A program made the translations under genes and the position numbers. From Nitrososphaerales archaeon (lineage in GTDB: Archaea > Thermoproteota > Nitrososphaeria > Nitrososphaerales > UBA213): a DNA stretch of 64,000 nt. Shown here piece by piece: positions 30,772-51,830 of this stretch. The stretch lies in assembly GCA_965197925.1 (NCBI GenBank), contig CBDAOC010000020.1:1-64000 (forward strand), in the 5' to 3' direction. Positions within the stretch are counted from its first letter, which is position 1. Each line of letters starts with the position of its first letter. The notes beneath the pieces are model-generated. The model was not told where the DNA came from. It ran no database searches and saw only the letters and a program-made list of their open reading frames with translations.

Positions 30772-31748
30772 GAGCCTATCCTAAAATTCTAGCTGATAGT
30801 TAATGATTGGTAGAAATGATAACATTTAGAATGCAAGAATATTAGTTCAAACTGTCAGGTTTAGTTTTCTTACTATTGATTTTATTAGTATTGTAGATAA
30901 TAGATACTAGAAACAGTTGCATTAACGTGTTTATGACACTACCAATATATCGCTCTATACACTATTAGGCAGTTAGCAAATTCTACTAGCGCCTGATAAT
31001 TTTCCTCTCTCTTCTCGAACCTTACCAATAACTTTCTGAACCTGTTATGCCAAGATGCGGTTCTTTCTACAACCCATCTCTTTGCTTTGTACAAATTCTT
31101 TTTCAACACTTCACCCTTATGACGAATGTGATCCACATATCCCCTTCCTAACTCCATATTTCATACTCCATACTCTATCTCAGGGAAATCATATCCTATT
31201 CATGCATATGTTCTGTTTAACTTTGGGCCTATCAACAACAATGCTATCTATTGTAGGAAAGGCTGATTTCATATCGTGCTTGTTTGCTTCAGTAATTACA
31301 GATGAGAGAGGTACTCCTCTTCTATCAACCAGCATGTGACGTTTGGTACCTAGCTTGCCTCTATCCGTTGGGTTTGCTCCGGTCGTTTTCCCCCTAATGG
31401 GGCCTTCGGTACGCTATCCATGGATTGCCAGTCCCATCCTATACCCTTCAATTCATCATATATTTCCAGCAGCCTCTTCCATACCTTCTTGAATACTCCT
31501 ATCCCAATCCATTCCTGAAATCTTGCATGGCAAGTTGAGCCAGAACCAAATTCTTTCGGCACCTTCTTCCACTGGCATCCAGTTCTTAATACGTACAGTA
31601 CTCCATTCAACACTTTTCTAAATGGCACAGCTGGCCTTCCAACTGTTCTTGCTGGTTTCCTTGGCGGCAGCACTAGTTCGAACTCTTCCCATAGATCGTC
31701 TGGTATATGCCATATGGTCGGCATGCTCTTTTTCTTTGATTTTCTCAC
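30772..31748 (-). mobile_element. IS5-family element, frameshifted
   Basis: PDDLW..GRP..LRTGCQW, GTKRH, RWVVERT.SW; end GAGCCTATCCTAAAA. Confidence 0.88.
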
Positions 31749-31852
31749 AAATTTAGCTAGAGAGAACAGATCTAGAAGACATTATATCGGGAATAACGTG
31801 CCTGTAACTTGACGTTTGGCATAAAGTAGGGGGTAAAGTTAGCAAGTTTTTC

Positions 31853-31942
31853 AATTTAGGTAGCGCACCTAGGTAGCGCACCTTTATCAAAAAAGTGCGC
31901 ACTAGGTAGCACACCTTTACGTAAAGTTGTGCTACCTAAATT
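31853..31942. repeat. Cluster of AGGTAGCRCACCT direct and inverted repeats
   Basis: Copies at 31858, 31871 and 31904, plus an inverted partial copy at 31928-31942. Confidence 0.8.
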
Positions 31943-32345
31943 ATGGTCTGAAAACAGTTCCAGAACAGTAAAGATAAACTAAGAAAGTTAAGTAACACTA
32001 ACATTTTTCGGGGGGTCGGTAGTCGATACGAAGGACCGAGGTCCCTATAATACATATAGTATATTTTATTGCTTTTAACATCATTAACCACCTTCCCCCT
32101 ACTACCACTGGCGTAACATAGGCCTACTACAGATACTTACAACGGCACCAACAGTACAGGCAGGGCATAGTATTCACCATCCAGCAGGACAAGGTGTATG
32201 ATATAATGTTATACATCAACGCAATGAACAGCGTCCTGCCAAAACCAGCACGGTGCGAACTACCCAAGCCACCAAGCAGGGATAGCGAGGAGGACAAGGC
32301 TTCCAAAATTCAACATCATAACCACATGCTGTATAACACCAACCA

Positions 32346-32705
32346 TTGTCCAGCGACAGGTTGATGGAACTCATACAGGAGAGCAACAGCAACAGGCAGG
32401 GCGATAGTTACTACCCAGATCCCATGAGGCAACTCTACTCTTCAATGATAAGCACGGATGCCCTCCCCTTGGCAGTTTTTGAGATAGAGCACATACCGTT
32501 ATTGGTTAATGCATTACCACCGAAACTAAAGCACCTTGCAAGAGATTATTATAATCTGTTTATCAGGTCACTAACGGCGACAAGGTCAATCAATGGTGCC
32601 TTGATAAAGGAGTTGACACAGACCAAGGTGCGCTATGAGTACGATGACGTAAATGGCAAGAAGGGCATCAACAAGATGTTTGCCCCCAAGGGTGAGAAGG
32701 AATAA
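32346..32705 (+). CDS. Hypothetical protein in a virus/plasmid-like block
   Basis: 119-aa ORF; start uncertain. Confidence 0.5.
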   Translation: MSSDRLMELIQESNSNRQGDSYYPDPMRQLYSSMISTDALPLAVFEIEHIPLLVNALPPKLKHLARDYYNLFIRSLTATRSINGALIKELTQTKVRYEYDDVNGKKGINKMFAPKGEKE

Positions 32706-32764
32706 GCATCCAGGCCAAGTGCAGAAAACTCAAATCAAGCGTTAAAGATAACCGAAGGCATATA

Positions 32765-33088
32765 GTGTTCTGTGAGAATTGCGGGCATCATGCCAGCGTA
32801 ACCGAACACAAATGCATGTGCTGTTTCGGCAGGGTCAGACTATACAAAAGAAATAACAGGTGGCTGATAACCATCCTGAACCTCGCTGCAAGACAGTACA
32901 AGCGGCAGGCGGAAAGGTTCCTTCTGTTCCCGGAGGACAACATTTCTGTCACGATAGAACGCAAGGGAATCATTTACAAAATTCCAATCAAGATTATCGC
33001 ACTCTGGATGCAGAACCTTCCCCGGCATGAAACCTTGGCTTATGCCTATGACAACATATCAACACAACATATCAACGCTATAATTTAA
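32765..33088 (+). CDS. Zn-ribbon hypothetical protein
   Basis: CxxC...CxCC at the N-terminus. Confidence 0.55.
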   Translation: MFCENCGHHASVTEHKCMCCFGRVRLYKRNNRWLITILNLAARQYKRQAERFLLFPEDNISVTIERKGIIYKIPIKIIALWMQNLPRHETLAYAYDNISTQHINAII

Positions 33089-33154
33089 TAATATTAGTGT
33101 ACACTTAGTATATATATACTAAATGTATGTCTAATGATCATGGGCAAATAGAAA

Positions 33155-33337
33155 ATGACCGAAGATCCACATACCATAACATTTAGTGATGAGGGAGTTT
33201 TTACAACTACGGAGCAAGACCTAACAGAAGAAGAAAAAGAGCAAATTAGGGAAAGCAGAGAAAATATTGCTAGTGGTAAAGCACGACTGTTCAAAAATGT
33301 CGACGAATACTTAAAATCCCTAGATGAAGATGAATAG
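33155..33337 (+). CDS. Putative type II antitoxin
   Basis: Acidic 60 aa with LTEEE...I.ES...I..GK...F..VDE pattern, upstream of the toxin. Confidence 0.7.
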   Translation: MTEDPHTITFSDEGVFTTTEQDLTEEEKEQIRESRENIASGKARLFKNVDEYLKSLDEDE

Positions 33338-33346
33338 TAGAATTGT

Positions 33347-33634
33347 TTGTCAGATGAATTAGATTGGCAAATTAAAGAGCCGCCAAACATGCGAAAAATA
33401 TTCAAAAGATTAGGAAATCCTGAAAAAAATCAATATCGTACAGCAATTCTCACGCTTACTCAATCTGAGAATCCAAAAAATCTTGGGAATTATAAGAACA
33501 GTCTAGGTTGTTTCACTTATGATATTACAAAATCTTTTAGAATTACATTTAGTATAGATTATGAAAATCGAATTATAAATATCCTAAGCATAGGAGATCA
33601 CAAACAAACCTATGGTAAGGACAAACATCACTAA
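33347..33634 (+). CDS. RelE/ParE-superfamily toxin
   Basis: Basic 95 aa, FRITFSID...I.I..IGDHKQTY. Confidence 0.75.
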   Translation: MSDELDWQIKEPPNMRKIFKRLGNPEKNQYRTAILTLTQSENPKNLGNYKNSLGCFTYDITKSFRITFSIDYENRIINILSIGDHKQTYGKDKHH

Positions 33635-33976
33635 TGGTCAGGGAAAGAACGCTTCTTTCAAGAATTACTATACCTTCGCCTATTCTTGGTTGTAATTAGT
33701 CTCTTGTAGCGAATTTATTTTGACTAGTTTTACCGCTTGATAAATTGCCGAGTTGTGAGATAGCTTCTGAAATTAAATTCAGGAACCCAGAGCGAATGTA
33801 CCATGTACCTAAAATCAAACTACCCGCCAATGGGAGAGTTAGACCCTGACGGAGGAGGCCTCCATCTATGTTTTTCCAGAATCTTCCGCACGTCCGCAAT
33901 CTACCAAGCGTATTTTGTAGCGATGCAGGTGAAAATCTTTGGCAGGATACTGACCAATTTACAAAACACGACATTA

Positions 33977-34291
33977 TTAAAATCGAAAATTAAATACATT
34001 GCCTACACCAAAAGGATCACTCTCACGTGACTGTTGACGCTTTTGTGCTCTGGCATGACTCTGTTTACTGGTTCTTACAGCATGACAATTTGCACATAAT
34101 GCACGCAAATTGCTTGGTTTGTTGTTACTACGATTACCATCAATGTGATCTATGCTGGGTCGTCTTTGTGCATTAAACTCTTCATGACATTCCTTACATT
34201 TGAACTTCTGTCTAACTAAAATATCATATTTCAAACCAGCACTTACACCACGCCTTTTTTTCTGACCAGAAAACCAGGTCAACACAATCAC
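33977..34291 (-). CDS. HNH endonuclease
   Basis: CKEC...DHIDGN.SNN..SNL.ALCANCH. Confidence 0.9.
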   Translation of the reverse strand: MIVLTWFSGQKKRRGVSAGLKYDILVRQKFKCKECHEEFNAQRRPSIDHIDGNRSNNKPSNLRALCANCHAVRTSKQSHARAQKRQQSRESDPFGVGNVFNFRF

Positions 34292-34350
34292 TCATTGAGC
34301 AAATTTCTCTAACACAAACCGTTTAATTTTACCCATATCAATGAATTAAC

Positions 34351-34770
34351 TTAACCTTTGTGCCGCTCTTTCTTGTCTGACACTTTTGCTAATGCTTGGA
34401 GAGGTTTAAACCCAATTTCCACCAATTTTTTATACACTTCAGGAATAGCATAACAAAAACCAATATGCACACATTCTTTCGCCTCATGATACAGGCAATA
34501 TAGATTAGAATTCTTAATTTGGACTTCTATCAAACGATCAAGATTATAATCACGTAGTAAGAGACTATCACCTTCTGGACCAATCCAGCTAATAAACGGT
34601 CCATATCGTGAAAGATAATCACTGTCTTCCAATTTTATCAGTAGATATTCATTTAACCATGTTCCAAATTTTCTATTATCTCTCTTTCTAGTTTTTAATT
34701 CCTCTAACCGTCTTACTACATCCATTCTTAAGCCTACAGGTTTAGCCCCACCCTTGAATGGCATATTCAC
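34351..34770 (-). CDS. Putative regulator with C-terminal Cys/His (SWIM-like) motif
   Basis: LYC..H...CVH; divergent from a small RHH-like gene. Confidence 0.5.
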   Translation of the reverse strand: MNMPFKGGAKPVGLRMDVVRRLEELKTRKRDNRKFGTWLNEYLLIKLEDSDYLSRYGPFISWIGPEGDSLLLRDYNLDRLIEVQIKNSNLYCLYHEAKECVHIGFCYAIPEVYKKLVEIGFKPLQALAKVSDKKERHKG

Positions 34771-34846
34771 CTAATGTTACCTAATCTATATATATATAAT
34801 TAATCAAAGCCTTAAAATACCTAAGGTAAATATAGGTAACCTAGTT

Positions 34847-34993
34847 ATGGAAAGTGATGAATTTACGAGTGTTTGTATAAGGCGTAAATACATAAACATT
34901 CTTCGGAGAGTAGCTGACGATAACAAACGTAGTCTCGCCAACCAGTTGGAGATAATTCTTGACGAGGCGTTAGAATTGAAGGTGGAAGCGTGA
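34847..34993 (+). CDS. Small RHH/Arc-like protein, 48 aa, not in the ORF track
   Basis: Hand translation MESDEFTSVCIRRKYINILRRVADDNKRSLANQLEIILDEAL. Confidence 0.7.
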   Translation: MESDEFTSVCIRRKYINILRRVADDNKRSLANQLEIILDEALELKVEA

Positions 34994-35133
34994 CTACCAA
35001 CACATCAATACATGAGCATAAGATAAGATGCGCTGGATGTAACTTTCACAGTACAATAGAGAAGTGCGACTGCTCGAATTCAACCGATCGTGATTTTTTG
35101 TGCATGGAATGCTGTCAAGGTGAGGGAGTATAA
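34990..35133 (+). CDS. Small Cys-rich protein, 47 aa, not in the ORF track
   Basis: GTGA overlap with the previous gene; CAGC, CDC, CMECC. Confidence 0.55.
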   Translation: MTTNTSIHEHKIRCAGCNFHSTIEKCDCSNSTDRDFLCMECCQGEGV

Positions 35134-35240
35134 GGACTAGATTCGTCTGGGACAAGCAACGTGTAAAGAAACCACAGGATAAACAACAACTACTGCAGCA
35201 AGTCTATGAGCATACGGTCGGCAATCGATCGAAGGGTATC

Positions 35241-36530
35241 ATGCCAAAGAACAGGCAGGAGATTGCAAAGTTGATCAACCGTTCGGAACAGTGGGTATGG
35301 GAACTATGGCAAATGTTGGTCAGGGAAGGCAAGCTACAAAAAGATCCTACAACTGGTCGTCTACTCAGGTCAGAACAGGACAGGAAGCAGATACAATATG
35401 CAGAAATGGCAAGGTCTGAATTTTTACAAATTCCATCAGTCCAGAAATGGTTCAACGACTTGATGACCGCTGGAAAGAACGGCCAGCCAGCGGTATCGGT
35501 TAATCATATGATACAAGGCCTGAACGTCGTATGCAACACGCTGAACATTCACCCTGACGCACTTCTCCAGGATATTGACACAAGCGTTGCCCTGCTAAAG
35601 GAGTTTGAAAGAAGGTTCAAGGCAGGCGAGGCAAGGTACGCACGTCAACTCAATAACATCGATTTCAGTTCCAGGGAGATAACACGTTACACATCATCAA
35701 CCCGTAATTTCATGATTAGGAATGGCATTGCCATTCCACGTGGCATCACGGGCATCATGTCAGGCAAGAAGAAGCGTTTTGGTGCATATGCCAACGTGAA
35801 GCTTACGGACAGGGAGTTTGAACGGGGGCTCAAGTTCATGCGTGGTTATGGCTTTGAGGAATTATTTGGAGTGATGCACGAGGTCTTTCCCAGGACCAAG
35901 ACGGGAATCACGATGGTGAACAAATTCGAGATCAGACCAATCGATGCCAAGGGCGTTCATGGTGAGTACGCAATCATGTCGTTATACGAGTCCAAGACAG
36001 ATCGTGCCTTTGACAAGATGGCAATACATCCCAAGGTGATTGAAATAATCAAGCGTGTGAAGCACGGTGCAACGTTCTGTACTAACGACGTTGGCAGTAA
36101 TGCCCGTGTCATTGCACTGGAGAGCGAGCTTGCATCTGCACTGAGTGATTATTACATATCCCTGGGCAAAATTGACAGGGCGCATTACGACGAGCACAAT
36201 GGCATGCACCAAAAGTGGAATTATCCCAAAGGAACGGATGAATGGTACTGGGCAAACAAGCCCGTATACGTGTTAAGGCACAGCGGGGCGCATGCAGCGA
36301 TGCGGAGGACCGCAAGTAATGCAACCCTTGTAGCATCAATGGGATGGGATGATGTCAACACGCTGTTGAAGGTGTACGCACGCACAACTGCAGAGGCCAT
36401 ACTCATGCAGGACGTTTGTTACTATCACAATCCACCAGAAATTAAGGACGAGAACTACGATTACTTTTGCAGCATGCGGTGCGCTATAGGATATTACCAC
36501 AATGGTTCCGCACCTCATTTGAGGGAGTAG
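35241..36530 (+). CDS. Divergent tyrosine recombinase with N-terminal HTH and C-terminal Cys/His cluster
   Basis: FPR, ESKT, YVLRHSG, MGW and KVY in the canonical R-K-HxxR-W-Y order. Confidence 0.7.
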   Translation: MPKNRQEIAKLINRSEQWVWELWQMLVREGKLQKDPTTGRLLRSEQDRKQIQYAEMARSEFLQIPSVQKWFNDLMTAGKNGQPAVSVNHMIQGLNVVCNTLNIHPDALLQDIDTSVALLKEFERRFKAGEARYARQLNNIDFSSREITRYTSSTRNFMIRNGIAIPRGITGIMSGKKKRFGAYANVKLTDREFERGLKFMRGYGFEELFGVMHEVFPRTKTGITMVNKFEIRPIDAKGVHGEYAIMSLYESKTDRAFDKMAIHPKVIEIIKRVKHGATFCTNDVGSNARVIALESELASALSDYYISLGKIDRAHYDEHNGMHQKWNYPKGTDEWYWANKPVYVLRHSGAHAAMRRTASNATLVASMGWDDVNTLLKVYARTTAEAILMQDVCYYHNPPEIKDENYDYFCSMRCAIGYYHNGSAPHLRE

Positions 36531-36544
36531 ATGCAAGGAAATAT

Positions 36545-37394
36545 CAGCTCTGTAGAAACCATACTATATAGACGGTCAGTCATTCTGTGCATATTGTAAG
36601 CAATTACCCTAAATGTTAATTCCCTGTTCTGCATCTTCACCATTCTTGATGCTATATGGTCACCAAACATCCTCTTTACCACAGACAGTCTCATTCTTGT
36701 TTCTTTGATAGTATAGATGTGTATAGAACTTCCTCTTCATTTGCTTCCTATATCTTCCATGCGTTCTCCATATTGGAACATCTTCATATCTAGCTGGTAT
36801 TATACTGACAGCATCAAGTTCTCGTACAAATTCATGATTTGCTTCGCTATCATAACCCTTGTCTGCTACAACTTTAGAGTGGCATTATGTTTGATGCTCT
36901 TTCCATAATGTGTTTAAATTTATGGTATCGTGTTTAGGTGCTTTTTATCTTCAATACAGCTATTGCTCTCTTAATTCAGCACCTATCGATAGCTTGATGT
37001 ACTTCTTCCTTATCCCTGTTCTATCCGTATAGTATGATGATGCATTGCTGGATCTGAATCCGGAAGCGTCTATTCCTACCAACAATTTTCTAATCTTGGT
37101 GAGAAGTATGAATGAGGATGCCATTCTGTACAGCAGGGTGCCATTGATTCCTGAGGCAAACTTCTGGAGCGTTGTATAATGTGGCACCCTGCCTAGCTGC
37201 ATAAACATTCCGGGATGACATGCTTCATGCAACCATTCCACAAACCTTCTGCAGCTCTTCCCTTCATGCTGCCTGAATGCCAGCAGGATGGTATGCTGCC
37301 AGACCGTATGGATGTGGTTGCCCTTCCTGTGCATGTATGGAGGAATTCTGGCCTTCATTACCACATTCAACATAGTTTTGGCAAGTTTGACATA
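36545..37394 (-). mobile_element. Archaeal IS5-type element, frameshifted, 5' end detached
   Basis: PHYTTLQKF, IDASG, DKGYDSE.NH, YQRNKNET, IAYN; end CAGCTCTGTAGAAACC. Confidence 0.85.
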
Positions 37395-37597
37395 TCTAGA
37401 AGAAAATCGGAGGAGGAGAGGTTTGACAATAAATTATCAACGGTTTGACTATATGGACCATAATAATGAGGTATATAACCTAACTTAATTCCAGTCATTT
37501 CACAACAGAAATACATCAATTTTTGTGCAACCGTCTTGCCGTAGATTCTGCCTTGGGAATGTTGAGCAATGCAGAGCAGCATGTCAGAGGCGTCCAT
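37395..37597 (-). pseudogene. ywgA-like (Panacea/SocA-related) gene, 5' half
   Basis: GKT..QKLMYF, Y.PHYYGPYS; joins in frame to the half ending at 42419. Confidence 0.8.
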
Positions 37598-37628
37598 TAC
37601 TTTCAGAGATACGTCGTATGTATATATC

Positions 37629-37768
37629 TTCCTTGTTGCATAACTATGAAATCTATTACTGAATAATGGAATCATTCTATAATTGTGGTGCGAATTTCTG
37701 AATTTAGTTTTTAATTATTTAATCATAAGACGAAAAATTACAGAATTTTTGAGTTGTGCAACAAAGCA
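37629..37768 (+). mobile_element. MITE copy 3
   Basis: Same TIRs and interior, AT-drifted. Confidence 0.88.
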
Positions 37769-37980
37769 CTAAAAGAAGCAACGCGTGGTTTTTGCTGCCA
37801 ATCTTCTTGGGAATTGTCGGCGGCATCATTGCATTCTTTGTCTTGCGACAAGATGATCCTGTAAAGGCAAAAAACTGCCTGTACCTAGGAATTGTGTTGA
37901 TGATAGTGGGCATAGTCTTAAATGTCATCGTTGCTGCATCTTTTCCCGAGTTTGGTGCAGACTTTGATGTGAACATCTAA
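37769..37980 (+). CDS. Small two-TM membrane protein, N-terminus abutting the MITE
   Basis: RSNAWFLLPIF.G..GGIIA.F.LR.DDP.KAKNCL. Confidence 0.7.
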
Positions 37981-38114
37981 AAAAAATGCGTGTCACTTCA
38001 GACAGCATCTTTAGATCTGCAAATTACTGCAATATGGGCTGATCTCAACGCGCGACTGCAGCTAAGATCTCATGTCTCCAAACACAAATAAAAGACAGAA
38101 GAGAGTTTCCACAG

Positions 38115-38579
38115 ATGGCAAAAAAGACGCTTTATCTTGCAAACCCGTACGGATTCTCTGAACAGCAAAAAGCCGGACCGCTGCAAGATCTTGTAAGGAC
38201 GCTAAATGACCTTGGGGCCAAAGTGTGGGAGCCGTTTGAGCGAAACAACCAGGACAGTGTGTCATCAGCTGACAATCCCTACAAAATCGGCCGTGCTGAC
38301 ATGCAGGATGTCAGGGACGCTGACGGCATCTTTGCAGTTGCCAACGGGACGCCGCCAGATGAGGGCGTAATGGTTGAGCTTGGCATGGCAATTGCATGGG
38401 GCAAGGAGGTCTTTTTGTTCCGTGACGACTTTCGAAGATGCGCTGACAGCAGCATGTATCCGCTCAACCTGATGCTGTTTACAGGCCTGCCAGAAAACGG
38501 CTGGCAAGACTGGTACTATACCAACATAGCCGAGCTTGCAGATCCAGAGAAGGCCTTAGTAAAGTGGCTTAACAAATAA
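38115..38579 (+). CDS. Nucleoside 2-deoxyribosyltransferase family protein
   Basis: YLANPYGF, DEGVMVELG.AIA, NLML. Confidence 0.88.
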   Translation: MAKKTLYLANPYGFSEQQKAGPLQDLVRTLNDLGAKVWEPFERNNQDSVSSADNPYKIGRADMQDVRDADGIFAVANGTPPDEGVMVELGMAIAWGKEVFLFRDDFRRCADSSMYPLNLMLFTGLPENGWQDWYYTNIAELADPEKALVKWLNK

Positions 38580-38913
38580 CCTGCTGCTGTAAAGAAGGCA
38601 GTCACACGGGTTTTGGTAAATTTTGTTTGATCATATTATTAGAATCTGTCAGAACCTGATGATTGCTCAATCCAGAAAAAACCATTTTAGACTTTCTATC
38701 TTTTTAGCATATGACAATATGGCTGTAAAAAGAATCGTTATTGATGTGTCATAGTGGGCCGAAGGTATTTCTAAAAATAAAATAAGAAAATATTCTTCAA
38801 ACTATCCAAGAACAGTCGCAAAAGTTGCTTTGGATGTTGTTGCCAGATCAACTAACAAGCCAACTGCAAAGATGCGGCCATCCTTTAACAGCCTGCCAGA
38901 CAAAATGTCACAA

Positions 38914-39177
38914 CTAGATCATGTTATCCAGGTTATTTTTATCAATTCCCACCACCTCTTTTTTTATCCATGCAGGATTGTTTACGGTAAACACAAGAAC
39001 CGAATCCTCGCCATCCCTTATCAGGCCAGATATTCTGGATTTTAGCTCTGCCAAGTTTGACACAGATATGTCTCCTTCAAAGACCGAATTTTGAATCCAG
39101 TTGAGGTATTGCTTGATTGTTATGCGTACTGCGTCAATACGCTCTGTGCCAATGTCATATGTTACTATGCAATACAT
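38914..39177 (-). CDS. cas2: CRISPR-associated endoribonuclease Cas2
   Basis: MYCIVTYDI, WIQNSVFEG, DSV. Confidence 0.92.
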   Translation of the reverse strand: MYCIVTYDIGTERIDAVRITIKQYLNWIQNSVFEGDISVSNLAELKSRISGLIRDGEDSVLVFTVNNPAWIKKEVVGIDKNNLDNMI

Positions 39178-40176
39178 TATCTCTGTCTGAATCCGACATA
39201 GTGTGCATCCTCCACAATGTGCTTGACTATCTTGTGGCATTCCATCCTCAACAGTCGCCTGTAACTCACATTTTTTTTCAGCGGAGACGTAGACGGTACT
39301 GTCGTAGACGGTACTGTCCAGTCTTTCATCATACTCTTTGACAAACGTCTTTCTCCCAGATTCTCCAAGATAGCAACCATTCATAGAGTCATCAAAATCT
39401 CCAGAGTCAAGCAACCTGCTGTTTACGATCTTAAATATTGCCTTATCCACGATTACAGGTTTGAACACCTCAGCTATGTCCAAAGATAATGAAAATCTTC
39501 TGTATCCAGGCTCGTGCAGATAGCTTACGGTAGGATCCAACTGTGAGTGATATATCTCAGTTACGGCGCTTCCATACATCATGCTGTTTCCAAACGATAT
39601 CAGCGAGTTAAGCATGTTTTGTGGTGGCATCCTGGTTCTTTTTTCCATCTTAAAGTCATCCCGCAGAAAACTGTCAAATAAATCATAGTATATGTTCCTG
39701 CAGTTTCCCTCTATTCCCATCAGCTCATCAACCTTACTACATGATGGTATCTGCCGTTGCAGCTGCTGTATTTTTTCAATGTGGACAGAGACATCCTTTT
39801 TCTTTGATTTGTAATAGCGCAGGTTTGCAAGCATGTTGTGCGTAGCTGCACGTATGAATTCAGATGCAAGATACATTCTTTTTTGTTGATTCAGATAATG
39901 CTGTACCTGCCGTACTGTCACCAGACCAGACAGGAGCTTCTCACGTGGGTAGTAGCTTCCAGCATAATTTCCATAATAGTTGTAAAAATGTATCACAATC
40001 CCCTTTGTGTTTAAAAAAATTATCAGCGCCGAATTAAAATCGCATTGTCCAAATACGTGAAGTGCCCTGACATTCATTACCGGTATTGATTTTTTCTCAT
40101 CGTCAGCAGATATTATCTGTATGGTGTTTTGAGTACGCTTGACTCTTCCTCCCTTGAATATGTAGTAATCGTTCAT
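39177..40176 (-). pseudogene. cas1: Cas1 (type I-B-like) with a 3' frameshift
   Basis: NT, YYG.Y.GS.YP, IEG, PP.N..N..ISFGN, YLHE, LDIAE.FKP; the natural tail VSYRRLLRMECHK is in another frame. Confidence 0.92.
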
Positions 40177-40614
40177 GACCAGCAGTACTCCGCATAGGCG
40201 CATTTGTCGCATATTGTCTTATATTCTGCAGCTTGAGGCTTTTTCTCAGAGATTATCTTGGCAGCGTCACGAATTACATTATCCAAAAAGACCTGTTTCT
40301 GTTTTGTCAGGACTACCTTTACCGTTTTTTTCAGTTTTGGATAGTTGAGTATGCCAGTTGTCTTTATTCCTAGTTTTTTGAGATGGTAGATGTAGTAGAG
40401 CAGCTGATATGCATGGGCATCATGAATCTTGTCGGACTTTTTGACCTCATGTATTACTCCCTTGTCAATATGGTCTATTGATATGTCTCCTATCCGGATG
40501 TTTTTTTTCTTTCTCTTAAAAGAGTCTTTGTCTATAAGACTGCCAATTTTTACCAGATCAGAGCTTGACTCAAAGGCAATGTTATGCGAGGACAGCCAGA
40601 GTTTTCTCTTGCAC
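40173..40614 (-). pseudogene. cas4: Cas4, 5'-truncated by the MITE
   Basis: CKRKLWL, ID..EVKKS, QL.YY, C..CAY...C; sequence upstream of the first Cys is MITE. Confidence 0.9.
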
Positions 40615-40752
40615 TGCTTTGTTGCACAACTAAAATGCTGCAATTTTTTGTCTTACGGCTAGATAATTGAAGATGCAGTCCGGGGATTCGCACCGCAATG
40701 ACAGAATAATTTCGTTATTCAGTAATGGATTTCATGGTTATGCAACAGGGCA
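40615..40752 (-). mobile_element. MITE copy 4, inverted relative to copy 3
   Basis: TGCTTTGTTGCACAAC...GTTATGCAACAGGGCA. Confidence 0.9.
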
Positions 40753-40768
40753 CAGTTATTATGCCTCA

Positions 40769-42097
40769 TCATTTGTGCAAGGTACTGGTGATCTTGAATC
40801 GTTTTTCGATGTATTGTTTGACACCCTCACGTTTTCCTTCGGGACAAAATACGTAGAATTTTCTTAAAGGTGCCGAGGATGCGGAAATCTCTCCTTCATC
40901 CTCAAAGAAAGAAGCGGAACCGTCACGTTTCTTCAATAATATAGGCAGTTCATTTTTCTCCGCAAGGTGTTCATAGGGTGTGTATAGTTTGTTTTCCAAT
41001 TTTTGGATATGAACAATTATATGATCTGGATCAATTTTCACTGATCGGGCAATATCCTTTTCCAATTCCAATTTTGACTCGGCGCTCATTTTTATTATCT
41101 TATCTCTAACAGTTCCGTCCTTGATTTCGTCCTTGAATATTCGTACTCCAAACCCCCTTTTCAGTAATCTCCTATTCATGATGTCGTTAATCATTTTTTG
41201 TGAATTTCCTTTTCCATTTCGAGCAATTTCTAGCATGATTGAGGCATCGTCCAATGAATAATAATATTTAAGAAATGCATCAAAGTTCTTCTTCTTTGTA
41301 GGAATTTTTAATTTAGATTTTGGAATTGTTCCATCGGAGACGGCCAACTGAAATGCTCGTAAAAACATGTCATCAGCAACAAGTCGTGTGTGGTGTTCAT
41401 ATACCTGTGTATACATGGAATAGCGTGCCAGCCTATAACCTTCTACCGCTTCTTTTCCTTTATCCGTAATTGCTATATGATGTCCGTCTTCAGTATTAGC
41501 AAGATTTCTAACGATTCTTTCAAGATCGAAAAAACCATAGAATGCGCCAGTATGGTAGGAATCCCTTCTTAGGTAATCAATCTTATCAGCATCAAGATTG
41601 CTAGAAATTATCTCTAGTAGTAGAGAATTGCACTTTTTTCCAAGTGCATTAATCACCAGTTTCTTTAAACCACCTATACCTTTGCTGAATTCAACGTCGG
41701 CATCAATGATAAATTGACTTAAGATTTCATGAGAAAAATTATTTCCGTTAATTTTCCTCATTGGAATTTCAAAAAGATGGGAAAAAGGCCCATGTCCGAC
41801 ATCATGCAGCAAAGCCATCATTCGAACGACCGTCCTGCTCTCATCATCCAAATGTAAAACACGGGCAATTCTGTCAGCTACATGAAGAGTTCCTAGTGAA
41901 TGTTCAAACCTTGCATGAACTGCACTTGGATAGACAACATAAGTATGGGACAGTTGCTTAATCCTAGATAATCTCTGAAATGCCTTTGTTTGAATAACAT
42001 TAACTTCTTGCCTGGTTAATCCAACGAATCCATATAAAGGATCGCGAACAAGCAGGAATTCCCATTTGTCATCATCCTGAACGTGTTTTCTTGTCAA
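40769..42097 (-). CDS. HD-domain phosphohydrolase (YwfO/SAMHD1-like dNTPase family)
   Basis: RDP, FQRL..IKQL, RFEHSLG, LLHDVGHGPFSH, DADKIDY..RD, QVY.H. Confidence 0.92.
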   Translation of the reverse strand: MTRKHVQDDDKWEFLLVRDPLYGFVGLTRQEVNVIQTKAFQRLSRIKQLSHTYVVYPSAVHARFEHSLGTLHVADRIARVLHLDDESRTVVRMMALLHDVGHGPFSHLFEIPMRKINGNNFSHEILSQFIIDADVEFSKGIGGLKKLVINALGKKCNSLLLEIISSNLDADKIDYLRRDSYHTGAFYGFFDLERIVRNLANTEDGHHIAITDKGKEAVEGYRLARYSMYTQVYEHHTRLVADDMFLRAFQLAVSDGTIPKSKLKIPTKKKNFDAFLKYYYSLDDASIMLEIARNGKGNSQKMINDIMNRRLLKRGFGVRIFKDEIKDGTVRDKIIKMSAESKLELEKDIARSVKIDPDHIIVHIQKLENKLYTPYEHLAEKNELPILLKKRDGSASFFEDEGEISASSAPLRKFYVFCPEGKREGVKQYIEKRFKITSTLHK

Positions 42098-42419
42098 GAC
42101 CTAGTGCCTCAAGAAGTTTGGAAGCAGTACGTAATGAATTTCTGGATCATTTCCATCCGAGATTCTTCGCAGATCTACTGATGTCTCTATAACTGGATGA
42201 CTTTTCTCTTTTTACAATATAGTTAACTTTGGCAGCGGTGGAAAGTATTTCAGGATCGAGATCTGCGATACGTTTGCATTCATCTACTACTTGGGAAATT
42301 TTCTCATGGAGGTTCGGATAGTTATGCGCCGCACGATTCGCAATAGCTTTACCGTCCTCTGTCAGGGTATACTTGTACATCATTCTCTCCCTATTGGTCA
42401 ACAATCTTTCTTCTAGAAG
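42075..42419 (-). pseudogene. ywgA-like gene, 3' half
   Basis: LEE...YKYTLTEDG, L..AAK, LGW; directly upstream of the HD gene. Confidence 0.75.
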
Positions 42420-42505
42420 GCGATACAGCAGATTAAAACTATTTTTGAAGACATTCTGCTAATGTAACCAAAACAGTGTGATTTTTAGCAAAACTAAATC
42501 TGTAT

Positions 42506-43204
42506 ATGTTTGTAATTCAGCATACTCTAAAAGTCAAAGACAACTTTAATTATATGGCACAACGACAAATATTTATGGCTTCTAACAAATTTGTGTTTCA
42601 ATGTCCACATTGTAAGGCAAAGTCAACATTTACTTTGATACATAGTATAAGACGAGGACGACGTAGCTATGCTATTCAAAATTGTGATAGTTGTGATAGT
42701 GTTATATTTTTTACCTATGAAACCGATAAAGAACTACCCACTATAATGTTAGAGATTTCGCCAGAATTTTTACATAATAATTATAAAATAATCGATTATT
42801 ACCCTAAACGCTCATACGAAGCACATGAAGCAATACCGTTAAATGTTGCAGAAGACTACATTGAAGCATTACGGTGCTTCGATAATAATGCGTTTAAAGC
42901 CACGGTCGTAATGGCTAGAAGGGCCTTACAAACTACTTGTAATCTTAAAGGTGCTACAAAATCTACACTAGAACAACAGGTAGACGAAATAATACCTGAA
43001 GATATGAAAGAACTAGCGCATGAAATTCGCCAGTGGGGTAACTTAGGAGCACACCCAGACCAAATTATAAAAGACATTATAGACGAAGACGCTGAAAAGA
43101 TTATAGACTTTGCTGAAATGCTGTTTAAACATTTCTTCATCTTACCTTATGAAGTGCAACAAATAAAGAATAAAAGAAATATGAAGAAAGATTCTAAATC
43201 TTGA
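42506..43204 (+). CDS. DUF4145 (HEPN-related) protein with N-terminal Zn ribbon
   Basis: CPHC/CDSC, DY.EA, M.RRALQ, IR.WGN.GAH. Confidence 0.85.
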   Translation: MFVIQHTLKVKDNFNYMAQRQIFMASNKFVFQCPHCKAKSTFTLIHSIRRGRRSYAIQNCDSCDSVIFFTYETDKELPTIMLEISPEFLHNNYKIIDYYPKRSYEAHEAIPLNVAEDYIEALRCFDNNAFKATVVMARRALQTTCNLKGATKSTLEQQVDEIIPEDMKELAHEIRQWGNLGAHPDQIIKDIIDEDAEKIIDFAEMLFKHFFILPYEVQQIKNKRNMKKDSKS

Positions 43205-43214
43205 ACAACTTGCG

Positions 43215-43800
43215 AAGTCATCTTAACTCTCCAATGCATTATGGATGCCGCTGGATGCAGAAATCCCATAACGTTTCCGGTAATCCTTCATAGCGTATTG
43301 CCAATCTAACCCCCTCTCCCTTTAGCCATGCGAAGAGCCTCCCAACATATGTTCTGCTCCTTTTGGACGTATTTTCGTCCGACTAACCGTTTCCAAATTT
43401 CTTCTTTGTTAGCAGTCCAGCTATCTTGGCTTTTATCTTATGCAATGAAAGATATGTTTCTACAAAGAATGAATCTCATGCTTTGTCATCTTCAGGTTTA
43501 GTTATCAGTTTATGGAAAGCAGGTATGTTCTTGCAAAGAACGGATCGCATGCTTTATAGGCATAAGCCTCAGGTCTACTTGGTCTTGCACCCGTCCTGAT
43601 TCTTGCGTCCTTCATGACTGGAATGAGCTTTCCGGTATCATGCTCATTCGCCGGACCCAGCAAGATAGATAAGGGAAGGGAATCGCCGTTGACGGCGGCA
43701 CCTTGCTTCCTGATACTTCTTGTTTCCATCATATCCTGCCATCTCTCCTTTCTGGCAGCAACATCACTGCTATCAATAACGGCTACCCTCATCTTCAATT
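43215..43800 (-). mobile_element. Degraded IS5-family remnant
   Basis: LPLS..LGPANEHD, LFAWL, IRYE fragments; end resembles that at 3760. Confidence 0.7.
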
Positions 43801-43898
43801 TACCGGTAATGGATCATAGCTTACTACCGCATCCAATCTCTTCCATATCCCCAATTTTTTCAGCCTTCTGCTAGCTGCAGAATCATCACCGTACTTCT

Positions 43899-44351
43899 TT
43901 GGCAAATAATCCATCCATCGACATCCCGTTGTCAATATATGCCGTTGATTGTCATCCCATCCCGTCATTTGCTCTACGCCTACCCGTCCTTGACTTGGAG
44001 GTTATCGTAACCAAGATAAAGAAGAGTCTAAATTCCAACACACGATATCTTGTGATTCCTACAGCTATGACGCAAGATTCCCAGTATCCGTTTCACGAAG
44101 AGGAGGAAGTCATAACAGTCGACTCTGAAAAGAAGCAGTTAATAATTCGGTCTGCAAAGGTAAAAACTGCGATAGAGCTTCAAAACGAAGACGTCAAAGG
44201 AAGAAGTAGGATGGAAAGACTTCCAAATTTCTTCAACATGGTTACTAACATTGGAAGGACGGAGGTCACCCTCAGTTTGATGGAGAAACAAGATATTACC
44301 ATAGAACTGATCAACAAGGGAGGGGAGAAGGGCACGATTAGACAAAAATGA
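43899..44351 (+). CDS. Hypothetical protein, possibly AbrB-like; true start probably near 44000
   Basis: YLVIP......PF...E.......K.LII pattern. Confidence 0.35.
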   Translation: MANNPSIDIPLSIYAVDCHPIPSFALRLPVLDLEVIVTKIKKSLNSNTRYLVIPTAMTQDSQYPFHEEEEVITVDSEKKQLIIRSAKVKTAIELQNEDVKGRSRMERLPNFFNMVTNIGRTEVTLSLMEKQDITIELINKGGEKGTIRQK

Positions 44352-44564
44352 AATAATCGTTACCTGCCTTTTCCAGTGTTTCATCGATTTTCACAAGCAA
44401 TGATGCGAACGGCAGAGTATCATATGAAGAATAACAAAACGTTAAGGAAGGCCGTACGTAACAGTCCCGATATAAACTTAAGAATCTGGCGGTATGCGGC
44501 TGATGGATTTCTGTTCAATAGAAGGTTGCTTTTAACCAGTGTTAAAAATCTGTTGCCCAGTAGA

Positions 44565-46484
44565 CTAAATCTCTTGTTCAGAAAGGGCTTTGATTACAGG
44601 ATTTTCTTGCGGTCCACGTTTAAGTACATGATCAAAGTACTCCTTGTATAGATCTTTGGCTCTTCTTAAGACGAAATTCCAATCCCAAACGTAGATCCTA
44701 CTCTGCTTCAATGTTTTTTTGAACTCAGACTGCTTATTATCAACAGCGGAAACAATAATCACTCCCTCTACATTCATTTTGTGTCGGGGATCATTAGTTG
44801 TATTAGCATATTCTCTCAGAAAATGCACGTAGTCGGAAATCTGAGTGAGCTCCCTTTTACCAGCTTTGTCTCCCGGTCTTTTTATTTCTACAACCCGTGC
44901 TTCGTTAGGCGACTGCAAGCAAAAGAAATCTGGTTCAAGACCACCTTCCTTCTGTCCGCTAGGTTTAATATGATATTCCTCCGTCAATAGTTTATCAAGT
45001 TGAGGTTCATGCCTGAATTGATCCCACCCTGGTTCAATAAGCCAAGGATGACTCGAGCAATTCGTGCATGTCTGGTTTCTCCTTTGCCTCTTCATTCAGT
45101 AGTTTTTCAAATTTTTCAATTATCTTAACCCGTCCCTTAATCACTATGGAAAGGCAAATTGCATCCACTATGCTCCAATCGGAAACTATTTGGAAGATTT
45201 TTTTCATATCTTCTGGCGACACCAAATTGATTTGACGAATCAAATCTAGCAAATGCTTGTTTTGAGTAACATCTACCATGAAGGTAGCAAAGTCTACAAC
45301 CTCGTCCTCAGTAAGAGTGGGAATGCGTGAAAACCTGTCAACGGCTTCTTTCACATGTTCCTGAATACCTTCGGGTAGCGTTAAAATTGACTTTTGGATC
45401 CGATCATCTTTATTTACTTTGTTCAAGTTGAGTTCGTGACGGATATCTGACCATCTTGCAAGATACTTTTTTACCTTGTTAACCCCTCATTCTTTCAGCG
45501 GCTCCCCCAACTCATGAGACCATGTTACGCTGGCTCTGTCAGTTACTATGAGATCATGTTCGTCGTCCAGAAAGTCAGCCATAATCTCTCCTATCATATA
45601 CCGCATACCCAGCTGTCCAGTTGCACCGCCCACTAGATCGAAAAACCACGGCGTTTGAGCGATCTTCCCCCTGACCAAAACGCTGATCCCTATAGCATCT
45701 TCGTCTGGAATCGGTTTTTCCGTAAAACCTATCCACCATCTAACTTCTTTGCCACCGATTCTTTCGATTCCCCATCCGTCTTGAATTTTTATCCTTTCTT
45801 TTTCATCCTGTTCGTCGGGAAATAGAACTTGAAGCGGCATATCCATTTTTCTGAGTTCCTTATCATTGATCATGACTTTGAAACTATCCGACATTAATGA
45901 GAACCGTCTCTGCATGCTCTTCATGAATTGTTCTTCGTTCACTGTGCGACTGAGTTTGATGTCTTCAAGAATTATGGAAGTATTGTTTTTTTCAGACGTC
46001 TTTTCATCCTCTAGAATCTCGGGATAATATTCTCCGCCAAACTGCTTTTCCTGTATATCGTTGAAACTCATTTTGAAGGCAGTAACTTTACCGTTCTTCA
46101 CTGTTCGTACTGTTACGTCGTTAGCAATTCCAAATCCAGCTAGTTTGCCTATTCCTTTATGAGCTAGACGTAGGCGACCAATCGCAGTTGTGTTTCCGTC
46201 CTCCGCGCGACCGTTTCTGCCCAAGACTAGGTATTTGCTGTCACAATCGTCAAAAGTCATTCCAACCCATTATCATTTACGATGATCTTGGTGCTGGAAT
46301 TGAACTTTTGTTCAAATGGAAAAGATACCTCAACTCTGGTCGCATCAGCATCCCATGCGTTAGCAATGAGTTCTGCGATGGCGGGCACAGCCCCTGAATA
46401 CATTTGCAATCCCAGATGTTTGACCAGTCCTCCCGCAAATTTCATTGTAAGAACTCTGGCAATTTGGTTCTCCAAAGTACACAT
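44565..46484 (-). pseudogene. GHKL (MORC/Hsp90-like) ATPase fused to a PD-(D/E)XK restriction-type nuclease, in four frames
   Basis: ELIANAWDA, DNG, KGIGK, then W.I.P.W, PDF..VVEIKRP..Q..DY. Confidence 0.85.
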
Positions 46485-46508
46485 GATCGGGGATAGTTCT
46501 ATATAATA

Positions 46509-46958
46509 TTGCCCTTAATGTTAGTAGAGCCTTTCTTGATCGACGTATTTTCAAAAGGAAAACGCAGTGAGATAATGAGCAAGATCCGAAGCAAAGGAAC
46601 GAAGCTCGATATTACGATGATGAATATGCTTTCGGAAGCAAACTTGCCTTACGAACTTTATCCGCAGCTCTGTGGAAGCCCAGACTTTCTGGTAGGTCAT
46701 ATAGTAATTTTTTGCGACAGCTCTTTTTGGCACGGTAAGAACTGGAACAAATTAAAAAAGAAACTAGCTAAGGGAAACAACCCTAGCTATTGGGTCTCGC
46801 ACATAGCTAAGAACAGAAGAAGAGACAGGGTCGTATCAGGACTATTGAAGACCGAGGGTTATGGCGTACTACGATTCTGGGACGACGAAATCTACAAACA
46901 CCAAGAGCGATGTGTTGCAGCGATCAAAAAAGAACTCAAATCGTCATGCTCGCAATAA
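46509..46958 (+). CDS. vsr: Very-short-patch repair endonuclease
   Basis: RSEIMSKIRS, PD, FWHG, YW...I..N..RD, LRFW. Confidence 0.9.
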   Translation: MPLMLVEPFLIDVFSKGKRSEIMSKIRSKGTKLDITMMNMLSEANLPYELYPQLCGSPDFLVGHIVIFCDSSFWHGKNWNKLKKKLAKGNNPSYWVSHIAKNRRRDRVVSGLLKTEGYGVLRFWDDEIYKHQERCVAAIKKELKSSCSQ

Positions 46959-48061
46959 TTGGGTAACTTTCAACGCGATCCTCTCAGCCAGAATTACTGG
47001 AACGCCGTCTCCTATCATGGCTCCTATCTCTTCTCTGGTGCCGCTTAACTGATAGTCGTCGGGAATTGTCTGCAATCTAGCAGCTTCACGAGTTGTTATG
47101 GCACGGTCTTGTTCTGGGTGCAAGAACCTGCCGCAGCTCGGCGTTAAGCATCTACTGGTTATCGTTGGAGAAGGCTTGTCCCACCACATCCGTCCGTAGA
47201 CAGATTCGGCGCCCCCGACCCGTAGCGCTTTGTGACAGGGCAGCCAAAGCTTGGGCGGAAGTTCCCTTCTACTGCCTCCGTTCTTGGGAATGTTTCTTAT
47301 TATTTTCATCACTTTCTCTCCGTGTTTGCGTGCCACGTGAAAAGGATCTGTAGGATCGGACTCGCCAGCTTTCAATTTTGGAAGATCGCCGATGACATCT
47401 CTTACAGTTTTTGGAAAGGTTTTTTTCTTATTATTTTGAGCATCCGAGTCTTTTTCAGGAACAGACGGAATCGCGTTAACTTTTTTCTTGCAGGAGAAGG
47501 CAAGTAATCTTCGCCTATTTTGGGGAACGCCATAGTCGGCGGCATTGACAACGCCGTAAACCGTTTCGTAACCGCAACGCCGCATCTTTCTGAGATATCG
47601 TTCAAAAAACATTCTGCCCGGTCCTTCAAACATCCAGAACACGTTTTCAAACACGACTACTTGAGGACGCATCTCTTCCACGCGTCTAGCGAAATCCATC
47701 ACATATTTGCTCCTTGAATCAGTAGACGGTCTTATTCCACGCGTCTCAGAAAGTTTGCTAAATGACTGGCAAGGCGGGCATCCTATTAAGCAAAAGTTCT
47801 CCTTCCTTTTCAATCCAGCTACGGAAAGAATTTCTTCCCCACTAATTTTTGACACGTCTTCTTCGATCGGTCGCACTCCTAGTTTTTAGCGTAGTTTTCG
47901 CACCTGCAATGGTTTATCTCCACCGCAGCTGCGATTTTGAATCCAGCCCGCTTAAAACCCAGCGATGCACATCCGATCCCTGCAAAAAGATCAATCACGG
48001 GAAACCTCTCTATCATCGCATCAACTCTTAATTTACCATATGGTTGAAGGAGAGCATTCAA
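46944..48061 (-). pseudogene. C5-cytosine DNA methyltransferase, frameshift near 47879
   Basis: DLFAG, PPCQ, ENV, PQ.RRR, REAARLQ. Confidence 0.9.
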
Positions 48062-48236
48062 GACTATTTGATGTCAGTACAACTTCCGCGTTTAAAACCT
48101 TTCCTTGTCGTTTAATTGTGAAAACCTAACTCATTTTGAACGTCTTTTTTTTTATCATCGCAACAGCTTCGTTATAGATCTTTTGCTAACTCTCCAAATT
48201 GTTTTTATTTTCTTACATACTCCGTTAGGATATTTG

Positions 48237-48374
48237 TGCCTTGTTGCATAGCCATGAAATCCATTATCGGATAACGAAATTATTCTGTCATTGCGGTGCG
48301 AATCCCCGGACTGCATTTTCAATTATCCAGCCATGAGGCAAAAAATTGCAGGATTTTAGTTGTGCAGCAAGGCA
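48237..48374 (+). mobile_element. MITE copy 5
   Basis: TGCCTTGTTGCATAGC...GTTGTGCAGCAAGGCA. Confidence 0.9.
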
Positions 48375-48433
48375 TGTACGTACTAATTCCTAAAGATAAA
48401 TCCAGGAATATTGCGGTTGAAAATATAGATTAT

Positions 48434-49927
48434 TCATCGAGTTGTCAAGGCCTTGAAGCGCTCATCATTCCTGATACTTTCAAAGCGTGAATCCTTTTTA
48501 GCCAGTTTTATGTATGCCTTGTCAATATCGAATGCTTTCCCTAGATCAGCTAGACATTGTTCGATATTACCATTCTTACTCATAAAGCATGCTTTAATGT
48601 ACCATGCATCGGCACGATTAGGATCAATGGCGATAGCTCCATCGTAGCAACCCAAGGCCTCTCCTTCCCTGCCTAGCTTTTGAAGAGCGTTACCTTTGTT
48701 GTACCATGCATCGGCACGATTAGGATCAATGGCGATAGCTCCATCGTAGCAACCCAAGGCCTCTCCTTCCCTGCCTAGCTTTTGAAGAGCGTTACCTTTG
48801 TTGTACCATGCATCGGCACGATTAGGATCAATGGCGATAGCTCCATCGTAGCAACCCAAGGCCTCTCCTTCCCTGCCTAGCTTTTGAAGAGCGTTACCTT
48901 TGTTGTACCATGCATCGGCACGATTAGGATCAATGGCGATAGCTCCATCGTAGCAACCCAAGGCCTCTCCTTCCCTGCCTAGCTTTTGAAGAGCGTTACC
49001 TTTGTTGTACCATGCATCGGCACGATTAGGATCAATGGCGATAATTTTATCATAGCAGACTAAAGCTTCTTCATCCCTGCCTAGCTTTTGAAGAATGATA
49101 CCTTTGTTGTACCATGCAGAAGTATGATTAGGATCTTGTTCAAGAATGCGATCGTAATGTTCAATGGCTTTTTCATGATTATTTGAATGATAGTAGAAGT
49201 TTCCTAGTCTTAGAAGATAATCACTATCACGCGATACTTTTTCACGCAGGCTTTCTAGTTCTAATCTTAATTTTTCAATCTGTTTATCGCGTTTACTAAT
49301 CTCAAGTTGCGTTTCTTCTGGTATTTCTATTTTATCTTCTTCTTTCAGCTCACTCTTAATTCCCAACGCATTGAAATCTTGATTTTGGACTTGTGTAACC
49401 TCTGTTAGTTTTTGCAAGATTACATTTGTTTTCTGCTTAATTTCTTCCACATTTTGATGAGTTTCCTCAGTTGTTTTCTTCATTTGGTCAACCGCACCCT
49501 TTATTTGGATAACTTCATCCTTCAGTTCATATAATTTCTTATTAGTATCGTTACCAGTACTAATTAGGATATCTCGAATTGTTTTGACCGTGGTTTCTTT
49601 AGCTGCAATCTTCTTGACATCATCAATTTCCACTAGAATGCTGTCCAATTGTATGGTGATTTGATTATAGTGCTGCTCACCTTGTCCCTCAAGATTATTG
49701 AAATAATCTAATACCTCCTTGGTCTTATCCTCTCCAGAACCCTCACAACTGTTATAAATATAGTCTGCTATAATGTTAAAAGGAGGAGGGAGCAAGGGAA
49801 TCGCTATTCTCTTTATGGCATTGTCTAACTTAGCATGATCATTTTTAAATTCTTTAATCTTAGTTCCCGCGTCTTGTTTGAAATCATTCAGTGCCTTTGT
49901 AAATGCATTAAATGATGGAAATCTCAT
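48434..49927 (-). CDS. Tetratricopeptide repeat protein with coiled-coil N-terminal half
   Basis: Seven 34-aa AWYNKG..L..LG...EAL..YD.A..IDP-type units. Confidence 0.92.
   Translation of the reverse strand: MRFPSFNAFTKALNDFKQDAGTKIKEFKNDHAKLDNAIKRIAIPLLPPPFNIIADYIYNSCEGSGEDKTKEVLDYFNNLEGQGEQHYNQITIQLDSILVEIDDVKKIAAKETTVKTIRDILISTGNDTNKKLYELKDEVIQIKGAVDQMKKTTEETHQNVEEIKQKTNVILQKLTEVTQVQNQDFNALGIKSELKEEDKIEIPEETQLEISKRDKQIEKLRLELESLREKVSRDSDYLLRLGNFYYHSNNHEKAIEHYDRILEQDPNHTSAWYNKGIILQKLGRDEEALVCYDKIIAIDPNRADAWYNKGNALQKLGREGEALGCYDGAIAIDPNRADAWYNKGNALQKLGREGEALGCYDGAIAIDPNRADAWYNKGNALQKLGREGEALGCYDGAIAIDPNRADAWYNKGNALQKLGREGEALGCYDGAIAIDPNRADAWYIKACFMSKNGNIEQCLADLGKAFDIDKAYIKLAKKDSRFESIRNDERFKALTTR
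48598..49043. repeat. Perfect 102-bp tandem repeat, about 4.4 copies, coding
   Basis: Identical units start at 48599, 48701, 48803, 48905 and (partial) 49007. Confidence 0.95.
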
Positions 49928-50925: not shown

Positions 50926-51000
50926 CTGGCTCTGGCAACAACTGGTTTTTTTACGTGCTTTTGAAATACCCCCGAGGACACATATTTTTTGCCTTTACAA

Positions 51001-51660: not shown

Positions 51661-51830
51661 AGTAACAGATGTACGGAGTACAAAAGCCGGTGTTTTTTAA
51701 ATTTGAACGCAAGGTGTCTAAAACCACTCATCTTGTTTAAGATAATCATCCTTGGTATTATCAAATTAACAGTACCAAATATCGTTGTGGCCTGACCTTG
51801 TCATTACCAACTCATTCAACTATGATCAAT

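Follow-up and report, generated by a model that had tools for sequence, protein, structure and literature searches.

The integrated elements described from thaumarchaea (Krupovic 2019, PMC6563490) carry a tyrosine integrase, are bounded by short attachment (att) sites of 8-26 bp, nest in one another and bring defense cargo, and the targets given for them there are tRNA genes, intergenic regions, and the 3' ends of protein genes. The GIsul2 integrase, as described in PMC9376610, mobilizes an integrase-less unit (CR2-sul2) by excision and integration and can use a reduced core in place of proper sites. The accretion of cis-mobilizable elements (CIMEs) and the use of secondary att sites by integrative conjugative and mobilizable elements (ICEs and IMEs) are accounts of site-specific capture into a resident element, with dead-end fixation (PMC5704250, PMC8371274), and the insertion sequences (ISs) IS26 and IS903 form circles of an element plus adjacent DNA that lack duplications and are lost unless rescued (PMC4471558, PMC11708052): cis transposition yields a circle that is lost without an origin (PMC4471558), and IS903 frequently gives rise to adjacent deletions (PMC11708052). 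Here, we describe a locus that resembles each of these systems in part: a circularly permuted block in the genome of a Nitrososphaerales archaeon (GenBank assembly GCA_965197925.1), lying within positions 1 to 64,000 of contig CBDAOC010000020.1, a stretch that we call the window. The block sits inside an integrative element (Table 1), 865 bp to the right of the end of that element's tyrosine recombinase gene, and both of its ends fall on TCTAGA, the core hexamer of the element family. We regard it as quite probable that an integrase produced this arrangement, counting versions with a circular and with a linear intermediate together, and as moderately likely that the block is a former DNA circle without an origin, composed of a miniature inverted-repeat transposable element (MITE), a ywgA-like gene, an HD-domain gene, a second MITE and cargo, which the element's recombinase integrated at TCTAGA.

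Compared with the elements in PMC6563490, whose main text does not use the term MITE, the core here is only 6 bp, palindromic, and found in both orientations, and the main attB is a palindrome within a multicopy IS5. Whereas CR2-sul2 has true att sites (PMC9376610), the site captured here was a palindrome in a coding gene, which was destroyed, and the captured unit is MITE-built. Unlike the CIMEs of PMC5704250 and PMC8371274, the block is not a decayed element with its own attL and attR, and conjugation genes were not seen. Unlike the circles described for IS26 and IS903 (PMC4471558, PMC11708052), the ends would be non-autonomous MITEs, with rescue by an unrelated recombinase rather than by an IS. 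In the literature consulted, we found no report of an archaeal element targeting an IS-internal site or of an integrase capturing a MITE-built circle; how new such a target is may depend on Table S2 of PMC6563490.

The rotation of the block is directly visible, as one gene is cut in two at its ends. The octamer TCTAGAAG stands at both ends, giving a repeat unit of 5,017 bp, as an earlier note on this DNA had described. Along the minus strand come, in turn, unique flank, the 3' half of ywgA, the HD gene, MITE2, cas4, cas1, and cas2, followed by a nucleoside deoxyribosyltransferase (NDT) gene and a membrane gene, both on the opposite strand, MITE1, the ywgA 5' half, and the IS. The note's proposal that joining the ends restores a single ywgA-like gene directly upstream of the HD gene is borne out by intact relatives. 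Three of 10 candidates from a protein search were longer relatives of the 5' half, and P0121 and its cluster members P0124 and P0126 (about 94% identical to each other) span both halves without gaps, P0124 crossing the break with the sequence that had been predicted. A ywgA-like gene lies immediately upstream of the HD gene at 23 of 24 loci examined in other genomes and also in a paralogous pair on contig C17. We use the name ywgA after a single source label (P0123) and the earlier note; a Pfam search of P0124 assigned no family, and the lead from ESM Atlas, to SocA/Panacea (0.89, 13% of members), was weak. The restored site forms a 16-bp palindrome centered on TCTAGA, the longest in the unit (the next is 10 bp), and the unit contains TCTAGA at the block ends only, which has a probability of about 0.19 by chance.

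The significance of TCTAGA comes from the rest of the genome. An abundant IS5 of about 1,045 bp carries, about 55 bp inside one end, a 16-bp palindrome centered on this hexamer, whose two sides we call arms E1 and E2; 34 full-length copies were paired, 28 of them with a 3-bp TWA target duplication. The integrative element that holds the block splits such a copy: attL and attR share the core and are flanked by complementary halves of the target (E2 and E1), which identifies the whole as an integrative element, and the split parts total 1,056 bp, with a flanking 3-bp duplication that matches at two of its three positions. Complete sister elements lie at C19:428847-418977 (9,871 bp) and C20:1021395-1009237 (12,159 bp). 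Genome-wide, the two element ends stop exactly at TCTAGA in 8/8 (F2, after exclusion of false positives from a looser pattern) and 13/14 cases (F1), or 21/22 together. Fifteen ends are on IS5 arms, in all four combinations (E1-F1, 5; E1-F2, 3; E2-F1, 4; E2-F2, 3), and six are at secondary sites; conversely, the 61 E1 arms are joined to E2 (50), F1 (5), F2 (3), or other DNA (3). At four more junctions, an IS5 arm meets unrelated DNA at TCTAGA, so that non-canonical partners are used; one of these partners, at C17:117471 where the arm is E1, matches the element interior at 99.6% identity. Other core junctions with unrelated DNA are at C20:548452, where the partner resembles a gene start cut at TCTAGA, C17:37067, C19:362391, and C3:8309, where the arm meets an IS fragment at a core that reads TCTTGA. 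All nine types of non-IS half-site joined to IS5 arms begin with A, the block's three unique halves begin with AG (as do 125 of 1,900 TCTAGA half-sites), and in the retained IS half, as in the IS5 arms, the first base is T. Because the ywgA halves and the right flank start with AG like several element-side halves, the two extra bases of the octamer are accounted for.

The F2 end lies about 3-3.5 kb upstream of the integrase gene in all five copies of that gene, and by this association of ends with gene copies, the integrase may be the enzyme that recombines TCTAGA. The earlier note had seen no integrase in the proposed circle, which holds for the block itself but not for its surroundings. Pfam, PHROG-integrase, and NCBIfam searches with the protein gave no match, and PF00589 is matched by 6 of 80 homologues (those aligned, out of 150 listed). 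The residues expected of a tyrosine recombinase are nonetheless conserved among the 80 (R218 in 79, K252 in 80, R346 in 80, W369 in 76, and Y379 in 79), with position 343 being H in 45 and Y in 31, as in the window copy. ESM Atlas scores the protein 0.96 to phage-integrase clusters, and its structure model (pLDDT, the predicted local distance difference test, 94) has listed fold matches that are all tyrosine recombinases or protelomerases, including the Tn1549 integrase and, at a probability of about 1, XerA, Cre, XerH, and lambda Int; a single-sequence fold (pLDDT 37) and a PDB sequence search were uninformative. Homologues occur in 46 of 401 genomes of the class. The integrase region itself (35000-37400) is a mosaic, its 5' part resembling C19:457k and 35875-37400 being identical to C20:1017k, including the IS insertion. 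Four distant homologues in genome G278 (L212-L215) share just about 1.3-1.6 kb of DNA, the form of integrase-only, transposon-like units.

Several observations weigh against assigning the block to this enzyme and to a circle. The best of the fold matches has an E value of 1.2e-3, with none under 0.001; distant homologues in G187, G229, and G278 showed no TCTAGA ends in comparisons between copies; and a second tyrosine integrase gene, at 13502-14875, is a possible alternative agent. In a genome-wide control that compared the 64 palindromic hexamers by their swapped arms, TCTAGA came fifth, with 23 types against a median of 3, and was among the 4 that showed a cycle, which is high but not unique; this statistic alone is thus not decisive, and the evidence is the arm-by-arm listing. 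Neither block junction has a canonical arm (E1, E2, F1, or F2), while all other detectable secondary junctions keep one. The assembly contains no F1-F2 junction of the kind an excised circle (attP) would have, a pattern scan of metagenome contigs for the native context of the right flank gave 0 matches, and neither a circle joint nor an intact ywgA nor an empty site appears in the contigs assembled from seven sequencing runs, which cannot prove absence.

Two accounts would explain the junctions without an integrase. In the first, a circle would have broken at the ywgA palindrome, as a hairpin, and been patched by microhomology into a chromosomal break, with deletion of the IS start. The palindrome is the longest in the unit and of a rare kind, as at least five extra palindromic pairs are found at only 2 of about 906 non-IS5 TCTAGA sites, and the left junction has an exact 6-bp microhomology. 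This account would leave unexplained both the position of the block beside the integrase and why the shared hexamer is the element core: pairs of TCTAGA make up 2 of 2,883 possible six-base matches between unit and IS (about 0.07%) and 8 of 52,409 for the element interior. We consider it improbable. In the second, a nuclease like XbaI would have cut incoming DNA and chromosome at TCTAGA, followed by religation, which would fit the restriction of the hexamer to the two block ends. The genome shows no avoidance of TCTAGA (951 sites observed, 1,000 expected), no such enzyme was identified, and the element ends already account for the hexamer. This account is very improbable. Site-specific recombination is the better explanation because the shared hexamer is the core of a resident family of integrase-carrying elements.

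The flanks of the block bear on how many events were needed. The earlier note proposed that a circle entered an intact IS by one crossover, the two sharing 8 bp of microhomology, with the outer flanks together rebuilding a plausible transposase N-terminus and a weak sequence like a terminal inverted repeat (TIR) near 42480-42497; the octamer repeat and the IS as left flank favored it. The IS at the left junction is identical over its retained part to C20:1017119-1016265, part of a complete sister copy (C20:1017119-1016170), and all 32 other copies that reach the junction point run on for about 94 bp of IS sequence to their own TIR, none into 42420 and beyond. Positions 42420-42520 of the right flank, which are single copy, score no better against the missing IS end than 98.7% of 2,000 shuffles, and the bases shared by IS and ywgA are the 6 of TCTAGA, not 8. 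Intact copies thus do not continue into 42420-42497, neither the rebuilt N-terminus nor the 8-bp crossover holds, and the single-crossover model is hardly credible. The loss of the IS start means that two events are required. An orphan IS start joined at TCTAGA to the ywgA C-half or other DNA was not among 34 matches in the genome, and the DUF4145 gene of the right flank occurs in 2 of 301 genomes, the other at 32% identity. We also rejected the octamer as a target duplication of a local IS or MITE, both of which produce 8-bp duplications: no TIR lies beside either copy, TCTAGA is found beside none of 136 element ends, and the block ends have no swapped partner. Elsewhere, two IS copies (C19:241003-241963 and C19:474771-475731) have exchanged 8-bp target duplications, marking a rearrangement between them.

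The cargo probably came from another archaeal family and was cut exactly at two host MITEs, judging from sequence similarity. The cas segment (38768-40614) is 93% identical in nucleotides to an intact type I-B locus of genome G534, of family f12, and a search of eight genomes of the host's family (f1) gave 0 matches; for the membrane gene and NDT, the identity is 89%, to L046, whose record bears the title Nitrosopumilus sp. On both sides, this similarity stops at the MITE termini, as the earlier note's picture of a MITE-bounded cargo implied. In run X1, the stretch 37767-40100 is found on overlapping contigs at about 99% identity, with the start of the membrane gene intact and without IS, MITE, or HD sequence. 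The host's MITE family has 17 complete copies of 138-140 bp (8 with a 7-8-bp target duplication), without coding capacity, and an autonomous partner of 984 bp with DDE_Tnp_1 (C20:947387-948370); the MITE was not found in five donor-side genomes searched. No target duplication surrounds the MITE composite at either end pair, and no matching duplication for the block's four MITE ends was found among the 136 element ends compared. The possibility that MITE1 is a chimera of two copies, suggested by an inner third with 87% rather than 100% identity to a young subfamily, was set aside as no donor pair was found. The joint between HD gene and MITE2 recurs at a second HD copy (97% identical) whose MITE has a different outer flank, which suggests that ywgA and HD probably moved together with their MITEs. 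A gene beside this second copy, at 1360-2043, clusters with proteins encoded on contigs from other genomes and may be another recent transfer.

These observations also bear on an account in which the same integrase acted without a free circle: two direct copies of MITE-ywgA-HD-MITE would have flanked the cargo, as in a cointegrate, and two recombinations at TCTAGA in ywgA would have trimmed the ends. If TCTAGA is a preferred site, the identical place of the cut in ywgA no longer requires a circle; the HD-MITE unit is multicopy (C20:1-1239 and C15:74813-73487), and intact ywgA-HD alleles are present in other assemblies, with no near-identical intact ywgA-HD DNA found in 41 genomes, genome contigs, and metagenome contigs (best 36% in the last). 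The duplicated intermediate has left no trace in the genome, however, which holds one ywgA N-half and one C-half, and the MITE-cargo joints lack the target duplication expected from a true cointegrate. We judge this linear account unlikely, though clearly less so than those without an integrase. A circle, which the earlier note also favored, is the likeliest intermediate.

A further account would be an assembly artefact, and local errors do occur: a 15-bp duplication at 39288, an overlap of 8.5 kb between the start of C20 and C15, and 5.4% contamination. The right junction is spanned without differences by short-read contigs of 1.6-1.7 kb in all six host-containing runs (X2-X7, from two studies, one possibly the source of the assembly; X1, from another study, contains just 0.28 of the words). 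The left junction is contained in contigs that begin at 37371 in X2, X3, X4, X5, and X7 and so reach just 24-30 letters into the IS, under the bridging threshold of 31 letters. Independent support for it comes from the ywgA::IS read-through protein in other assemblies (P0140 and P0141), found on two contigs (the longest 2.63 Mb) and, as a one-residue variant, on two more (the longest 655 kb). Read depth over the block is 0.73-1.32 times that of the flanks. We give an artefact next to no probability. Of the local errors, the 15-bp duplication (39288-39302, in cas1) is absent from the contigs of all six host runs and is probably an assembly error, and window positions 1-8493, which contain a 5'-truncated HD copy, are 99.3% identical to C15:66234-74719, either a redundant assembly or a recent duplication.

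Taken in order, the favored course of events, integration of a circle by the element's integrase, would begin with entry into this lineage of archaeal DNA from another family, carrying the membrane gene, NDT, and cas4-cas1-cas2. Either cis transposition of a composite of two host MITEs around ywgA-HD or recombination between two direct MITE copies would then have closed composite and cargo into a 5,017-bp circle without target duplications. The integrase would have recombined the circle's sole TCTAGA, at the center of the ywgA palindrome, with the TCTAGA of the IS beside the integrase gene, and a second recombination at TCTAGA, earlier or later, would have joined the right flank, deleting the IS start and intervening DNA. 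The resulting arrangement now stands fixed in one copy and is decaying. The HD and NDT frames are open, whereas ywgA, cas4, cas1, and the membrane gene are broken; cas1 and cas2, separate genes in G534, are fused here by a frameshift, and with cas4 truncated, the block is not an intact CRISPR adaptation module. CRISPR families were not found in 28000-54000, and an exact-repeat scan of the whole genome found three arrays.

The consequence for interpretation is that an account by chance microhomology gives way to an enzyme-site pair that can be tested, and a recombinase with a short palindromic core may be of value as a tool. With about 60 target copies and 21 recombined ends, the integrase may be a main driver of rearrangement in this IS-rich archaeon of the ammonia-oxidizer type. 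More tentatively, as a possibility we hold at somewhat less than even, an archaeal tyrosine recombinase of no assigned class, whose core is a palindrome of six bases, may have in the multicopy IS5 a set of self-spreading attachment sites and be of such relaxed specificity that it rescues circles which MITEs have built without an origin, splitting the genes that hold the core; MITE, IS-borne attB, and integrase could then form a three-element relay for gene capture between archaeal families. What the locus documents is a recent DNA transfer between two families of Nitrososphaerales (kinship labels place the host in this order, the one to which the family of G534 belongs), as a single fossil event, and with the cas, membrane, and ywgA genes broken, no gain of function is shown.

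Table 1. Features of the integrative element and of the permuted block within it (window positions).
Feature	Position	Strand	Remarks
IS5-family element, left part (DUF4096 transposase, ~1,045 bp)	30772..31770	-	carries attachment palindrome; split by integrative element
attL core TCTAGA	31771..31776		IS5 arm E2 joined to element end F2
Integrative element, 20,125 bp	31777..51901		F2 end to F1 end; block inside
Tyrosine recombinase	35241..36530	+	N-terminal helix-turn-helix; R218-K252-Y343-R346-W369-Y379; 5 copies in genome
IS5-family (NF033579-like) IS, ~950 bp	36546..37400	-	first ~94 bp gone
Left junction (J1)	37395..37402		IS meets ywgA N-half; TCTAGA (6 bp) common to both
ywgA-like gene, 5' half	37403..37597	-	65 codons; frame runs on into IS
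MITE1, 140 bp, 16-bp TIRs	37629..37768		no target duplication; outer end cuts membrane gene near codon 3
Cargo 1: gene for a small membrane protein, without its 5' end, and NDT (38115-38579)	37769..38592	+	
Cargo 2: type I-B cas2, cas1 (frameshifted into cas2), cas4 (5' end cut by MITE2)	38768..40614	-	
MITE2, 138 bp	40615..40752		inverted relative to MITE1; no target duplication
HD-domain phosphohydrolase	40769..42097	-	PF01966 and PF19276; frame open
ywgA-like gene, 3' half	42075..42419	-	premature stop at 42147-42149
Right junction (J2)	42412..42419		ywgA C-half meets single-copy DNA, not IS, at TCTAGA (plus 2 bases)
Right flank	42420..43204	+	unique non-IS DNA and DUF4145 gene (42506-43204)
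attR core TCTAGA	51902..51907		element end F1 joined to IS5 arm E1
Split IS5 remainder, 51 bp	51908..51958	-	includes its terminal repeat

The window has no tRNA genes, and 28000-54000 has no Rfam matches. An F1-E1 junction lies at 28870, with its partner end not nearby, and C17:33275-34439 is a 1.2-kb unit with inward-facing F1 ends at both sides. Within the same integrative element as the block, 44565-48061 contains a fragmented gene for an ATPase-nuclease and genes resembling those for Vsr and a cytosine methyltransferase (named from reading of the open frames alone), and at 48237-51140 a second pair of MITEs, again without target duplications, surrounds a TPR gene.

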